Part shown: positions 27,001 to 33,000 of the stretch, piece after piece
Layout of the letters: every line of letters starts with the position of its first letter
Numbering within the stretch: the first letter of the stretch is position 1
Source of the DNA: an uncultured Pseudomonadota bacterium
GTDB taxonomy: Bacteria; Oederibacteriota; Muellerivitia; Muellerivitales; Muellerivitaceae
Reading direction: 5' to 3'
DNA length: 64,000 bases
Assembly (NCBI GenBank): GCA_963770835.1
Contig: CAVYRH010000005.1
Coordinates: 128,001 to 192,000, forward strand
Made by a program: the position numbers

Positions 27001-30000
27001 GGACAACCTCGGGAACCTGAACTACCGGCAAGGGAACTTCGACGCGGCGGCGGCGGATTACGAAAAGGTAGTGGCCTTGAACCCCGCCCACGGCGATGCC
27101 CACTCAAAACTCGGGAATATCTACCTGAAGAAGGGGGACCGCCCCCAAGCGGTGGCCCATTGGGAAAAGGCCCTCGCCCTGGACCCCGGTAATGAGATCC
27201 TGAAAAACAACCTGAGGATTTTAGGAGAAACCAAACCCGTATGATGAAATCCCAGGAAAAATCACTGGGCGAACTCCTGCGCCAGGCCGGAAAAATCACC
27301 TACCGCCAGATCCAGGTGGCCTTGGGCGAGCAAAAGAAGAGCCATGAGCCCATCGGGAAGGTGCTGGTGCGCCTGGGATTTGTCGAGGAACGGGACATCC
27401 TACAGGTCATGCAAGGCATGCTGGCCCTGACCTTCCGGGTTGAGAGCGAATGGTATGGGATTGAGACCTTCCGGGTCCGGGAGGTGTTGAAATACGCTTC
27501 CTTCCAGGCTTTGGAACCGCGGCGGGAGCCCTGGGAGGGGGAATTTGCCTTACGGGGCCAAAAGCTTCCCCTTTTGTCCTTCCGTAAGTTCCTGGGGCTT
27601 TCCCTTCCGGAAAATCCCAAGGGCACTTGGTTCATTGTCCTTGAAAAAGAGCGGAAATTTTTCATCCTGTGGGTCGACGAGGTGCGGGAGGTGGCCCGGT
27701 TTAAGATCGACCAGATTGAGCCCGTGCCCACCTATCTTTTCGGGAAAAAGAACGAATTGTATTACTGTTTGGGTAGAATAAAAGGAGAGCTTTATTCGAT
27801 CCTAAACCCGGACAAGCTGGCGGAGGAATCCGGCCTGCTTCCCCTGGTTCCGGGGAAAGAGGAAGCCGAAACGGTTATCCCGCCCCTTTCGGGCGGAGGC
27901 CCGGCATTGGTATCGGATGAAGTCCGCCAAAGACAAGCCCCGGCCCAGAAGCCGGAAGGCCGAAAGGGTTGAGCATGCCAACCTTCATTTTTAAGCCTTT
28001 TTTAAAGAGATTGGTATTGCACCGATTTCTATATTACTTTTTCCAAAAGGAAAATCGGCGCATGCCAACCTTCATTTTTAAAGATTTCAAGGAAGTTGGT
28101 ATCGTACCAATTTCTTTAATCTATTTATTGCTATAGGAAAATTGGTACATGCCCCCCCGTCCCGAAACCAAAACCATCCGTGAAATGGCCAATGGCAGCG
28201 ACCAAGGAGATGCCTCCACCCATAACAACCTTGGCGTTTTTTATTATTCCAAGGGCATGCACGCCGAGGCCATCAAAGAATTTAAGACCGCCCTGGAAGT
28301 GGACCCCGAAAACCACCAAGCCCAAGAAAACCTGAAGGCCGTCAACCGGCACACGGGCCTTTTTGACCGTTCCATCGAGGCCTACAAGAAGTCGGTCCAG
28401 ATGTTCCCGCAGGACCCCGAGTCCCATTACAACCTGGCCAATTCCAACCGTTATATTGGGGAATATGAAAAGGCTATTGAGGGCTACGAGAAATGCCTCA
28501 GCCTGAACCCCGACCACCCCTTCGCCCGCAATTACCTGGGAATTTCCTATAAATGCCTCGGGAAATTCGACGAGGCCATGGCCGAGTTCCGCAAGGCCAT
28601 CGAGAAGAACCCCTTTTTTGCCGACCTCCACAACAACCTGGGCGAGGTTTATTACAAGAAGGCAATGGTGAACGAGTCCCTCATTGAGTTTAAAAAGGCC
28701 ATTTCCCTCAACCCGGAATATGCCACCGCCCATTACAACCTCAGCTTCGTCTATGGCGACAAAAACATGCTGGAGGAAGCCGAGAGGGAATTCAAAAAAG
28801 CCGTGGACCTAAACCCCAATTTTGGGCAGGGCGCCCAGGCTCTGCTGTCCATCGAGCGGGCCAAAACCATGGAGGAACGGGTGGCCGAAAAAGTGGCCTC
28901 CCAGCCAATGGGAACCTCCAGCGTGGAAACCTACCTGAGCCTGGCCTCCGCCTACAAGGGCAAGGGCCTTTTGGACGAGGCCATCAAGGAGTACAAGCGG
29001 GCCATCGAGGCCATTCCCAATGAAGAAAAACTTTACCGCGCCCTGGGCGAAATCTACCTCCTGCGGGGCATGCTGGAAGATTCCCTGGCGGCCTCCCAAA
29101 AGGCCATCGAACTGGCGCCTAAGAGCGTCGAGAACCACATCCAGGCCGGCATTGCCTTAAGGGAGCTCAACCGTATTCAACCCTCCGCGGACCAATTTTT
29201 AAAAGCCATCGAGATCGTGCCGGGCTCCAGCATGGCCCATTTCGAGCTGGGGGTGACTTATTTCAAGATGGGGGAGGGCGAAAAGGCCACCCGTGAGGTC
29301 CGGGAAGCTCTGGAGATCGATCCTCAAAACGCCGAGGCCCACTATTATCTGGGTGTCTATTACTACAAAGTGAACCTTTACGACGAGGCGATCCGCGAAA
29401 TTTCTCAGGCGATCGACCTGAACGTCTCCATCGCCTCCAGCGCAGAGGCCCTGACCTACTTGGGACTGGCCCTGGCGGACAAGGGGCGCTACGAGGAGGC
29501 CATCGCCGAGTACAAGAAGGCCATGGAGTTCGACCCCAAGAACCCCATCATCCACAACAGCCTGGGCGTGGCCTACAAGAACGCGGGAATGACCCAGGAG
29601 GCCATCCGCCACTACCAGCTAGCCATCGAGTTGAATCCCCAATACGCCAAGGCCTACAACAACCTGGGCGTGGTTTATTTCAAACTAAGCCAGTATGAAA
29701 AGGCCATCGAGGCCTTCAAGCGGGCGGTAGAGATCGAGCCGGACTACAAGACGGCCCAGAACAACCTGGCCGTCGCCATGAAGAAAAAGAACGTCCTCTC
29801 CGAGGCCTCCGAGGTGCTCATCAAGCAGATCATGGCCGACCCCGAAAACCCCTCCCTTCATTACAACCTGGGAAGCCTTTACAAGAACACCGGCCAATAC
29901 GCCGAGGCGGTCCGGGAATACCAGGAAACCCTCCGCTTGGCGCCCAAGAACCGCGAGGCCCTGACGAACCTGGGGGAGGTCTACCTGAACATGGAGTCTC

Positions 30001-33000
30001 TGGACGACGCGGTCAAGGTGCTGGCGAAGGCTGTCTCCTGCGACCCCAAGTTTCCGGAGGCCCACCTGCAGCTGGCCAAGGTTTATATCCGCCGCAAGTG
30101 GTGGGACGAGGCCCTGGTGGAGCTCAAGAAAACCCAGGAGGTGAAGGCCGACATCACCGAGATCCATTTTCATCTGGGGCAGGTTTACCGGTCGAAAAGT
30201 TGGTGGGATGAGGCCGTCGAGGAGTTTCAGAAATACATGGATTCCTCCAACGCGGAGGAGGAAAAGGTCACCCAATCCATCGATGCCATCCAGCAGATCC
30301 AGTCCTGGAAGAAGGAGCTTCAGATTTCGCCCAGTGCGGGCCAGTCCAAGCTGATCAAATAAACACCGCCCCGGCGCTGGAAACCCCTGGCTTTATCGGT
30401 CGGCCGGGCCGGAGCTTCCGGGGTTTTTGCTTTATTATTGGGGCTTTTGCGGTTAAAACAGGTTTGATGGAAACCCCGAGAGAAGGACTTTATGAAATTC
30501 CTGGTGTGCGTCATTCCACCGAAAAAAATCGATCAGGTCAAAAAAGTCCTTTGGGAGGCGGGGATCCGGGGCGTTACCCTGTCGGACGGTTCGGGTTACG
30601 GATACCAAAAGGTCCAGGTGGAATCCGTTAAGGGGGCCGATTACAAGATTCAGTACCAGCCCCGGATCCGCATCGAAATTGCCCTTCCTGACGAGGAAGT
30701 GGAAAAAGTCGTGGAATTGCTCCTGGATACGGTCCGTACGGGAAGGATTGGAGACGGAAAGTTCTTTATTTTGCCCCTGGAGGACGCCATCCGGGTCCGC
30801 ACGGGCGAGCGGGGCGAAAACGCCCTTTAATTAAATAAAGAATAATGAATAATATGGAACCGACCAGTCAATAATGTTTGTTTTCATCGTCCGTTTTTAA
30901 TCGTTCATTTCACATTTTTTAGGAGGAAGCCGTGGCCCATCGCGTGTTGCTCGTGGATGACGCATCCTTTATGCGGATGATGCTGAAGAATATCCTGGTC
31001 GGGTCCGGCTATGAAGTAGCCGGGGAAGCGGAAAACGGGGCCAAGGCCATTGAACAGTACAAAGCCTTGAAGCCGGACCTGGTCATTATGGACATCATCA
31101 TGCCCGAAATGGGGGGGATTGACGCAGTACGGGAAATCATCAAGGTCAGCCCTTCCGCGAAGATCTTGATGTGCAGCTCCATGGGCCAGCAATCGCTGGT
31201 GGTGGAAGCCATCCAGGCCGGGGCCAAGGATTTCATCGTCAAGCCCTTCCAGCCCTCTAACGTCCTGGAAGCGGTGAAAAAAGCATTAGGTTGAAGGCAA
31301 CTATTGGTAGCTCGCTAACCGCTACGGTTTAAAAGCAAATGGCCGCCGTTAAGGATGGCATGGAACAAGAATCGCAATTTTTTAACGACTTCCAGATGGA
31401 CGCCCTGAAAGAAATCGGCAACATCGGAGCGGGGAACGCGGCCACGGCTCTTTCCCAAATGGTGGGGCGCCGAGTGGACATGTCGGTGACCCAGGTGAAG
31501 ATCCTGAAAACGGACGACATTGCTGCTTTCCTGGGCGGCATGGAACAAAACGTCGCCGCAGTGCATATGCCCGTTTACGGCGAGATTTGCGGCATCTCCC
31601 TCGTTTTTTTTCCCTTGGAAAGAGTCGGCGAGCTCTGCGGCATGCTGGTGGGTAAGAAAGAAGATGACCCCCTCCACCTGTCCGAAATGGGTCAGTCGGC
31701 TATCAAGGAAGTGGGAAGCATCCTGACCGGTGCTTATTTGAGCGCGCTGTTTCGCCTCATGAACCTCCAGATGATCCATGGCGTTCCCGGCCTGGCCATC
31801 GACATGGCACAGGCTGTCCTGGACACGGTACTGGTGGAGCTGGAGCAAAAAGAAGAGGTGGCTATCGTGATTGAGACCCGGTTCCTGGAAAACGACAAAC
31901 AGCTGACGGGGAGCTTCTTCCTCCTGCCTGAAACCGGATCCTTGCAGAAACTGTTTACGGCTTTTTCCAAAACCTTCGGGTTTTCCGGCAATGGGTGAAG
32001 AGAGCCGTGTCGTTGGAATCGCCGAAATCATCGTTTCCCAAAGCCCCCAACGGTTGATGGCTTATGGCTTGGGCTCCTGCGTGGGGGTGGCCCTCTACGA
32101 CGCCACCAGCAAAACCGGAGGGATGGCCCATGTGATGCTGCCTTCCAGCCGCCTCCACTCCTCGGAAACCCATCCCGGAAAATACGCCGACACGGCCATT
32201 TCGGTCCTGGTCGCGGAAATGGAAAATGCGGGATGCCGGCGGAAAAACATGGCGGCCAAGATCGTGGGCGGCGCCAACATGTTCTCGGATATTATCCAAA
32301 GCGGGGTTCCCATCGGCTTGCGCAACGTTTCCGCCGTCCGACAGAAATTGGAGGAACTGGGGATTCCCATCGCCGCGGAAGAGGTGGGGGGGACCAAGGG
32401 CAGGACCATGATTTTTACCCTCGAAGACGGCCGGGTGGAGATCCGACGCCTGAACCAGCCCGAGCAATACCTGTGAAACAGTCAAATAAACTGCGTTTTT
32501 CCAGAATATTAAGTTTGATCCAGGTTTTTTGGGCGGCCCGGCTTCTTTAGTGGTAAAAATAGTTTCAAAGGTCTTGAGGTGCAACCGATGAGCCTATCGA
32601 TGTCCGAAATATCAACGCTTTCCCAGCCGGAAACGGCGGAAGCCCAACTGGTGGTGTTCACCCTGGCGGGCTGCGAGGCCGCCGTGGGAATCCGGCAGGT
32701 GCGGGAAATCCTGCGTGTGGGCGATATCACCTTCATGCCCAAGGCACCGCCCTTTTTGGAGGGGATCATTAATATGCGGGGGAAAATCATCCCCGTCATC
32801 GACCTGAAGAAGCGGTTCCAGATGCCCCTTATCGACCGCACGGATGAGTCGCGCGTGCTAATTGTGGAAATCCAGGACCAGATGCTGGGGTTCCTGGTGG
32901 ACAAAGTAGTAGGGGTGCTGAGGACCTCCCTGGCGGCGGTGGAGCCTGCCAAGGAGCCGGTTTTAACCGTCGGCGCCGAGTATCTCGACGGGCTCCTCCG

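Follow-up and report, generated by a model that had tools for sequence, protein, structure and literature searches.

PII proteins regulate enzymes of nitrogen metabolism as well as transporters and transcription factors. The PII-motility link described in PMC7646526 is indirect: GlnZ of Azospirillum brasilense, a general nitrogen PII, influences motility and adhesion together with c-di-GMP, controlling c-di-GMP and aerotaxis through a cyclase and a phosphodiesterase. Among chemosensory pathways, the Dif pathway of Myxococcus xanthus and the Dif-like clusters of Geobacter are described in PMC2577667 and PMC5544727 as having a 44H receptor that crosses the membrane by two helices and hardly extends into the periplasm. 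They contain CheA, CheW, CheY and CheC, to which the Geobacter clusters add CheD and CheR, and they co-occur with type IVa pili. The MshEN_N domain of Vibrio cholerae MshE (5HTL) is a four-helix module (PMC5013675, PMC11731258). Changes of hydrophobic MshEN residues cost more than 10-fold and changes of Arg9 less than 5-fold (Wang 2016), and MshEN-CheA and MshEN-CheX fusions are already listed in that work.

The window analyzed here, a stretch of 64,000 nucleotides from an uncultured bacterium of the class Muellerivitia, contains a che operon with genes in the order cheR, TPR, MshEN-CheW, TPR, PII, cheY, cheC and cheD, all on the + strand (Table 1). The order from MshEN-CheW to cheD is that given in the survey's finding. 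Catalytic motifs of the Che proteins are intact. A promoter scan returned 9 sites against 9.0 expected. A terminator-like hairpin (30404-30421) lies ahead of the PII gene in the window genome; it is not general, because in 43 of 48 relatives no more than 30 nt separate the TPR737 and PII genes.

Table 1. Genes of the che locus and its surroundings; coordinates are positions in the window.
Feature	Position	Strand	Remarks
PilT-family ATPase, C-terminal TPRs	21478..23781	+	TIGR01420 472 bits, cut-off 319
Small TPR-like protein, 142 aa	23802..24230	+	retained in che-less relatives
316-aa protein	24220..25170	+	weak FlgT_C-like lead only; retained in che-less relatives
CheR methyltransferase	25127..26050	+	first gene of block deleted in genus g2
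All-TPR protein, 393 aa (TPR393)	26063..27244	+	
MshEN-CheW: MshEN_N residues ~6-60, CheW 62-196, variable tail	27241..27972	+	
All-TPR protein, 737 aa (TPR737)	28149..30362	+	orthologue in 58/99 phylum genomes
Che-linked PII, 112 aa	30492..30830	+	nucleotide-site residues kept
CheY1	30932..31294	+	highest conservation in operon: mean 90% in class
CheC phosphatase 1	31339..31998	+	
CheD	31991..32476	+	
Ordinary CheW	32579..33130	+	
CheY2	33159..33524	+	
CheB, receiver + methylesterase	33576..34673	+	
CheA: Hpt, P2, dimer, HATPase, CheW domains	35329..37461	+	
CheC phosphatase 2	37587..38219	+	
Degenerate GGDEF protein, RxxD inhibitory-site motif intact	38285..39385	+	last gene of g2-deleted block

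The pathway resembles Dif in several respects. The receptor (G000:C5:122038-123306) has hydrophobic segments at residues ~9-35 and ~41-65, followed by HAMP from residue 66, and its residues 205-421 align without gaps to TM1143 (2CH7), which PMC2577667 assigns to the 44H class. These features make it a 44H receptor that has two membrane helices but lacks a periplasmic sensing domain, in agreement with the Dif-like definition of Tran 2008 (PMC2577667). The set of CheA, CheW, CheY and CheC, with CheD and CheR as in Geobacter, and the co-occurrence with type IVa pili are shared, and so is the order receptor-cheW-cheY-(cheB)-cheA-cheC in families f10 and f15-f23. This likeness is one of architecture and of gene content and order. 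Beyond the Dif set, the operon encodes PII, MshEN-CheW, CheB, two TPR proteins, and a further CheY and CheC.

Of 32 class genomes, 27 carry a single copy of the Che-linked PII (69-100% identity), and the next-best PII reaches at most 44%, which bears out its status as an orthologue of its own; the window genome encodes 7 further PIIs elsewhere. The TPR737 gene is directly upstream in all 27 genomes and cheY directly downstream in 26, the remaining one being at a contig end. "Class-wide", as the survey had it, proved an understatement, since the slot is also filled in 38 genomes of other phylum classes. Across the phylum, PII occupies the slot before cheY in 65 of 67 operons examined, supporting the claim of a dedicated PII as a standing member of the Che operon, and it lies directly behind TPR737 in all 58 genomes with a TPR737 orthologue. 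Metagenome loci of sufficient length have the slot filled in 16 of 17 cases. In genome G086 and metagenome locus L235 the operon is broken and lacks PII. Scanning 185,579 species genomes for sequence patterns yielded 26 loci, 25 class orthologues and one unrelated PII (38%) without che genes; because the patterns were class-specific, distant cases could be missed. In the PII tree, Che-linked and other PIIs are split with only 79/35 support.

The protein passes PF00543 (80.9 bits, cut-off 25), and 41 solved PII sequences were matched, including Aquifex-type PII 2EG1 (gapless alignment, E 1.9e-33). Its scores are below the canonical equivalog cut-offs (PRK10665, 98.1 versus 181; PRK10858, 94.3 versus 202). 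Roles of ligand residues were taken from PMC8395244 and PMC6908673. Like canonical GlnB, GlnK and GlnZ (PDB 2EG1, 3MHY), the Che-linked PII is 112 residues long and keeps Thr29, Gly35, Gly37, Gly87-Lys90, Arg101 and Arg103. In the nucleotide site, Asp88, Gly89, Lys90, Arg101 and Arg103 are present in 65/65 full-length sequences, Gly35 in 66/66, Thr29 in 63/66 and Gly87 in 63/65.

The 2-oxoglutarate site, unlike that of canonical PII, is altered. Position 9 is Lys or Arg in none of 66 sequences, Gly41 is mostly replaced, and position 58 is K in 15, R in 47 and Q in 4; Gln39 is kept in 45 and replaced in 21. The window PII has Pro9, Tyr38, Val41 and Arg58 in place of canonical residues and keeps Gln39. 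Tyr51, the site modified by GlnD in canonical PII, is found in 42/66 sequences overall and in 27/27 from the class, within which Gln39 and a basic residue at position 58 are likewise invariant. Unlike canonical PII genes, the gene adjoins neither amt nor nitrogen genes, and no GlnD was found (TIGR01693 over cut-off in 0/5 genomes). The nitrogen sensing proposed by the survey is weakened by the absence of Arg9, the rarity of Lys58 and the lack of detectable GlnD. The effect of K58R is not mentioned in PMC6908673, and to judge from the residue itself Arg58 could still bind 2-oxoglutarate in this class; together with the invariance of Gln39 and Tyr51, this leaves room for nitrogen sensing there. 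On balance, we favor a Che-linked PII that reads adenylates, with 2-oxoglutarate and uridylylation control weak or lost.

The survey went further and placed the PII over a flagellum without filament. The flagellum is indeed such, with Flagellin_N in 0/32 and FliM in 28/32 class genomes. F1-type chemosensory systems usually drive flagella, FliM occurs together with the operon in most genomes of the class, and CheY1 is very conserved; these points, with the invariant Gln39, Tyr51 and basic residue 58, would fit a PII that reads 2-oxoglutarate and wires nitrogen status into an array controlling the switch of the filament-less flagellum. Besides the altered ligand site and missing GlnD, such wiring is opposed by five near-complete genomes (G050, G059, G061, G062 and G064; 96-100% complete) that keep the operon, with one CheA and PilT, and in which FliM, FlhA and flagellin were not found, and conversely by G002 and G004, where FliM was retained after deletion of the che operon. 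The FliM of the window genome has an N-terminal stretch that we take to be CheY-binding-like, but it is uninformative as a marker of Che linkage, since it is conserved to the same degree in 11 genomes with che genes and 5 without. We regard this explanation as unlikely. Pili or matrix are the output that we consider fairly probable. The link to pili is loose: in three lineages (this class and families f10 and f11) the locus starts with a pilT-TPR gene, but this gene is kept in che-less genomes after deletion of the che block and was not found in most operon-keeping f8 and f9 genomes.

The T-loop of the Che-linked PII varies widely between classes and is class-specific, unlike canonical T-loops. 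This would suit a PII that senses no ligand and reports nothing, serving as a three-fold hub that scaffolds or localizes the TPR proteins and CheY1. In a mirror-tree comparison of 41 loci, PII distances track those of TPR737, CheY1 and TPR393 (residual r 0.71, 0.65 and 0.61), a weak hint given that pairs are non-independent and these three are simply slow genes of the class. PII and TPR737 were also lost together in G093, which keeps the rest of the operon. However, the nucleotide-binding residues are kept over 38-100% sequence identity, and PII persists in G065, G067 and G068, where TPR737 alone was lost; the latter rules out TPR737 as an obligatory partner of PII. An inert hub is given the same low probability as nitrogen control of the flagellum.

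The survey's own worry was that the PII may be a hitch-hiker. Its gene is small and tightly packed between neighbors, and G093, which manages without it, shows that the PII is dispensable. PII was lost from G002 and G004 with the whole che block, from cheR through the degenerate GGDEF gene, a single deletion in genus g2, where the unlinked receptor was lost as well; this would have removed a passenger too. A count of five independent co-losses in the class was not accepted, as G002-G004 belong to a single genus, and G014 and G016 are 63% and 82% complete, the former retaining the unlinked receptor. It is nevertheless improbable, a little more so than the two preceding readings, that PII is a co-transcribed passenger whose target is unrelated and which stays in place by chance or through shared expression needs. 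At least 4 times, neighbors were lost or relocated individually while PII stayed before cheY: it was retained when MshEN-CheW alone was lost (G051-G053), and where cheA-cheC or the receptor gene sit elsewhere. Neither G093 nor the che-less class genomes yielded an orphan copy. The mean identity of PII in the class (79%) is above that of CheA, CheB, CheR and CheW, and its dN/dS is ~0.02-0.04 (4 pairs). The low dN/dS and the retention despite loss or movement of neighbors make a decaying passenger unlikely, and the worry is much reduced. That the PII works in this Che pathway is the part of our reading that we hold with most confidence.

The MshEN_N-CheW fusion is real: NF053729 matches residues 9-57 with 53.9 bits (cut-off 38; E 1.1e-14, against 2.5e-15 in the survey), and the fusion is encoded in 26/32 class genomes. 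Its MshEN_N part comprises four helices (9-15, 21-34, 38-44 and 50-58), as in MshE (5HTL; rmsd 0.8 Å over 51 residues, E 0.016). The CheW part scores 79 bits with PF01584 and matches TtCheW (2QDL; E 2.6e-12, rmsd 2.1 Å). Among 28 aligned sequences, G10, L28, Q31 and G39 of the MshEN part and G100 and R105 of the CheW NLRG region are invariant. As in known MshEN domains, the LG pairs and the leucine cluster are kept, as is the first-motif Gln (54/54), and motif 2 starts with Pro as in Thermus PilF GSPII-C, which binds (PMC5013675, PMC11731258). The survey had remarked that the first Arg of the motif is missing, and it is: among the 54 matched of 57 sequences, motif 1 starts with S in 50, T in 3 and G in 1, preceded by K/R in 54/54. 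The published start is R, extended to R/K/L (R/K/P/N in a relaxed search motif), so these residues fall outside both published consensus versions. Ser/Thr at this position and the lack of the MshEN C-terminal subdomain set the fusion apart from MshE and PilF GSPII-B/C. Judged by its residues, c-di-GMP binding is plausible, and we lean slightly towards a c-di-GMP-binding protein that enters the array alongside, or in competition with, ordinary CheW. The architecture of this stand-alone CheW fusion differs from the single CheW match in the supplement of Wang 2016; a c-di-GMP input at the array core is less new than the survey supposed, because MshEN-CheA and MshEN-CheX were published there.

The least probable explanation is that PII controls c-di-GMP turnover through an HD-GYP-type or the degenerate GGDEF protein of the operon, as GlnZ does in Azospirillum (PMC7646526), and acts on the array solely by way of c-di-GMP and MshEN-CheW: an HD_5 protein is encoded upstream of cheR in 3/3 scanned loci of f15 and f22, 3/4 HD_5 proteins checked have an HD-GYP-like motif, and the degenerate GGDEF protein keeps RxxD in 18/18 rows, but neither gene is common to all PII-keeping lineages, neither was observed next to the operon in f8, f9 and f10, and PII stays where MshEN-CheW was lost.

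The reading that we prefer, tentatively as a whole, is that of a fixed PII that likely senses ATP/ADP and works on the CheY1-TPR part of a Dif-like pathway, the output of which is probably pili or surface behavior. Its functional steps are based on gene context and residues. The pathway would be entered through a receptor without a ligand-binding domain; because that receptor perceives no external signal, add-on parts would supply internal ones. PII would pass energy state (ATP/ADP), more than nitrogen, into the pathway by acting on its CheY1-TPR part. Whether its contact is CheY1 or the TPR scaffold, rather than CheA, we rate as an even chance. The output would be type IV pili or surface behavior rather than a flagellar switch. 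A more far-reaching version, in which an inward-looking, phylum-wide system steers pili or matrix, with a receptor that lacks a sensing domain, a dedicated PII subfamily turned from nitrogen to ATP/ADP sensing that contacts a Che protein directly, and a c-di-GMP-binding CheW tuning the array, is rather doubtful.

A literature search, in which subscription journals were thinly covered, found no description of a stand-alone MshEN-CheW or of a PII encoded within a che operon. The GlnZ case of PMC7646526 differs in that here a dedicated paralogue lies inside the che operon. If the far-reaching version is true, a Che pathway would for the first time have a PII among its permanent subunits. All parts of the system except the receptor are soluble, which makes the claim accessible in vitro without culturing the organism. 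The finding bears on how Dif-type receptors without a ligand domain are activated. A che operon that keeps a PII across several classes would open a new input route into chemosensory signaling, and its PII would form a new subfamily in which the effector site is altered.

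On the plus strand the locus reads pilT-TPR (a PilT-family ATPase gene with C-terminal TPRs), genes for 142-aa and 316-aa proteins, cheR, a gene for a 393-aa TPR protein (TPR393), an MshEN_N module fused to CheW (MshEN-CheW), a gene for a 737-aa TPR protein (TPR737), a 112-aa PII gene, cheY (cheY1), cheC and cheD. These are followed by cheW, a second cheY, cheB, a local insert, cheA, a second cheC, a degenerate GGDEF gene, dprA and topA. CheA, CheB, CheD, both CheY and both CheC proteins retain their catalytic motifs. Some named homologues come from Goldbacteria and Firestonebacteria.

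Positions of the features discussed (bare numbers, positions in the window, which is C5:128001-192000; C, contig, of the genome under study unless another genome is named; L, locus)
Feature	Position	Strand	Remarks
pilT-TPR	21478-23781	+	PilT plus about 420 residues of TPR; in 62/99 phylum genomes at a loose threshold; in G072 and G073 a second PilT gene comes after it
TPR393	26063-27244	+	
MshEN-CheW	27241-27972	+	
Inverted-repeat element, first copy	27964-28125		intergenic; about 13 places genome-wide
Inverted-repeat element, second copy	about 37440-37587		
TPR737	28149-30362	+	conserved Ser-Pro and basic-hydrophobic C-terminal tail, which may be a docking peptide
PII	30492-30830	+	
143-aa orphan	34757-35188		between cheB and cheA, in a stretch of lower GC; no Pfam match; none found in the compared loci of relatives
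FtsA/PilM-like gene, families f9 and f10	L176:3696-5834; L184:16827-19001		713-725 aa, after cheA-cheC, where the class has the degenerate GGDEF gene; ThiS-like repeats in G065
Receptor	C5:122038-123306		
Flagellar cluster	C5:30573-73518		large; outside the window (L067, L068); FliM, rod, L and P rings, FlgM, FlgN, FlgK; genomes lacking the che genes retain it too
Three PII genes in tandem	C19:442458-443635		behind an amt-like gene apparently split over several frames
PII-bearing membrane protein	C19:448546-450564		L008; 672 aa, permease-like by eye, PII domain C-terminal; akin to long PII-bearing frames in several class genomes

Eight PII matches were found in the genome; the other seven are all on other contigs, several adjoining transporter genes. 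The Che-linked PII is present as a single copy, at 69-100% identity, in 27 of the 32 class genomes, the next-best PII reaching at most 44%, which bears out the survey's finding that it is a conserved orthologue of its own. The same 27 genomes carry the orthologous CheA, and 26 of them MshEN-CheW; in the exception, G027, the contig begins within the TPR gene. G002 and G004 cleanly lack the stretch running from cheR to the GGDEF gene, between the 316-aa gene and dprA. In a tree built from 61 Che-linked PIIs and 11 others the class forms one clade (support 99/99), and Che-linked PIIs are weakly separated from the others (79/35).

The survey had regarded the arrangement as class-wide. The operon-borne PII is real, but its range was understated: the feature is found phylum-wide and is older than was claimed. 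A TPR737 orthologue was detected in 58 of 99 phylum genomes, 10 of them picked by the TPR match alone, in the absence of a PII match. Each of the 58 has PII as the next gene, truncated in one case where the contig stops. Seven further genomes have PII in the slot, for a total of 65; the count refers to operons examined, a subset of the 99 genomes. Two operons are without PII: in G093 it was lost together with TPR737, and in G086 cheY follows unrelated genes. Metagenome searches returned 43 loci, and PII is present in 16 of the 17 long enough to judge; in one locus (L235) the operon ends after MshEN-CheW, with no PII. In G070 the TPR-PII junction occurs in two copies with shortened T-loops (L099, L100), which may reflect duplication or mixed binning.

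Could PII be a mere passenger of the operon? Its loss in genus g2 was one block deletion, and G093 shows that the pathway can persist without it. Against this, PII stayed before cheY while MshEN-CheW alone was lost (G051-G053), while TPR737 alone was lost (G065, G067, G068), where cheA-cheC moved (families f8 and f9) and where the receptor gene is unlinked (the class studied here). PII is also conserved: within the class its mean identity to the protein of the genome under study is 79%, compared to 90% for CheY1, 77% for TPR737, 61% for CheA, 57% for CheB and 50% for CheW, and dN/dS is about 0.02-0.04 in four pairs, a fifth being saturated. Since the surrounding genes were lost or moved singly while PII kept its place, a passenger is unlikely. 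As to a possible partner, cheY1 is the sole neighbour retained beside PII in every intact operon, and distance residuals between operon proteins group PII with TPR737, CheY1 and TPR393, a weak clue.

Residues of PII contacting nucleotide (Thr29, Gly87, Asp88, Lys90, Arg101 and Arg103) and those for 2-oxoglutarate and Mg (Arg9, Lys58 and Gln39) are known (PMC8395244). Across 66 Che-linked sequences, drawn from 65 genomes, the nucleotide-site residues hardly vary. None of the 66 has Lys or Arg at position 9; at position 58 there are 15 with Lys, 47 with Arg and 4 with Gln, and 45 sequences retain Gln39. In the comparison set of 11 other PIIs, 9 have Arg at position 9 and 10 have Lys at position 58. 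GlnD scored above the cut-off in none of five genomes searched. The retained nucleotide site, the altered positions 9 and 58 and the GlnD result together suggest a sensor of adenylates whose nitrogen input is weakened. Some 2-oxoglutarate binding by the class PII is possible because Gln39, Tyr51 and Arg58 are invariant there. The K58N substitution abolishes 2-oxoglutarate binding and retains that of ATP; K58R is outside the coverage of that paper (PMC6908673).

The predicted structure of MshEN-CheW (mean pLDDT 84.7) matched TtCheW at 2.1 Å and MshE (5HTL) at 0.8 Å over 51 residues. In the alignment the MshEN module conserves its LG pairs, its leucines and the first Gln. All 54 matched sequences have Ser, Thr or Gly as the first residue of motif 1, and 50 have Pro as that of motif 2. 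The first Arg of the motif is dispensable, and a domain with Pro opening motif 2 binds (PMC11731258); changes of Arg9 cost less than five-fold (Wang 2016). The Ser that starts motif 1 here falls outside the extended consensus of PMC11731258. On balance, c-di-GMP binding is plausible, slightly more likely than not. There are 21 GGDEF matches in the genome; in the operon's degenerate GGDEF protein RxxD is intact in all 18 rows, although a few genomes were counted twice. In families f15 and f22 an HD_5 protein precedes cheR.

Families f10 and f15-f23 have a receptor in the operon, and its best match in the genome under study (37%) has two adjacent membrane helices, HAMP and a 44H signalling domain, an architecture that matches the definition of systems resembling the Myxococcus Dif pathway (PMC2577667). 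Of the 32 class genomes, 26 have this receptor; genus g2 lacks it even though it is unlinked to the operon. Dif acts on exopolysaccharide, downstream of pili (PMC5544727). Here pilT-TPR is the first gene of the locus in three lineages yet persists in che-less genomes, and it was not found in most f8 and f9 genomes; the link to pili is therefore loose. Six pilT-TPR loci in other families had no che genes within the stretch inspected.

The class flagellum was described as filament-less, and indeed no flagellin (Flagellin_N) was found in any of the 32 class genomes. The proposed tie of the operon to that flagellum did not hold. Five genomes 96-100% complete (G050, G059, G061, G062 and G064) had no FliM, FlhA or flagellin and retain the operon front, one CheA and PilT; pilus genes were confirmed in G064 (PilM, N, O, Q) and G050 (PilM, Q). 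Conversely, G002 and G004 retain FliM and have no operon. Missing flagellar genes have been noted in Firestonebacteria (PMC7031533). Flagellar output in the genome studied here is possible. Across the phylum (e.g. G092:C12, G087:C14, G063:C2) there appear to be two flagellar systems. One has a canonical FliM and no flagellin; the other has a divergent FliM, which shares a contig with flagellin in 9 of the 12 genomes whose flagellin matches are strong.

Literature searches returned neither a PII within a che operon nor an MshEN-CheW standing alone. MshEN inside CheA and MshEN with CheX are already catalogued, that CheA being the sole CheW match in a term search of the supplement (Wang 2016). 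GlnZ, through its action on c-di-GMP enzymes and on aerotaxis, comes closest as a precedent (PMC7646526); the portion consulted of PMC6978683 mentions GlnB for Ntr signalling only. The operon is a new variation on a Dif-like, CheC/CheD-type system, for which we infer the mechanism: a divergent PII subfamily would probably supply that system with an internal-state input.
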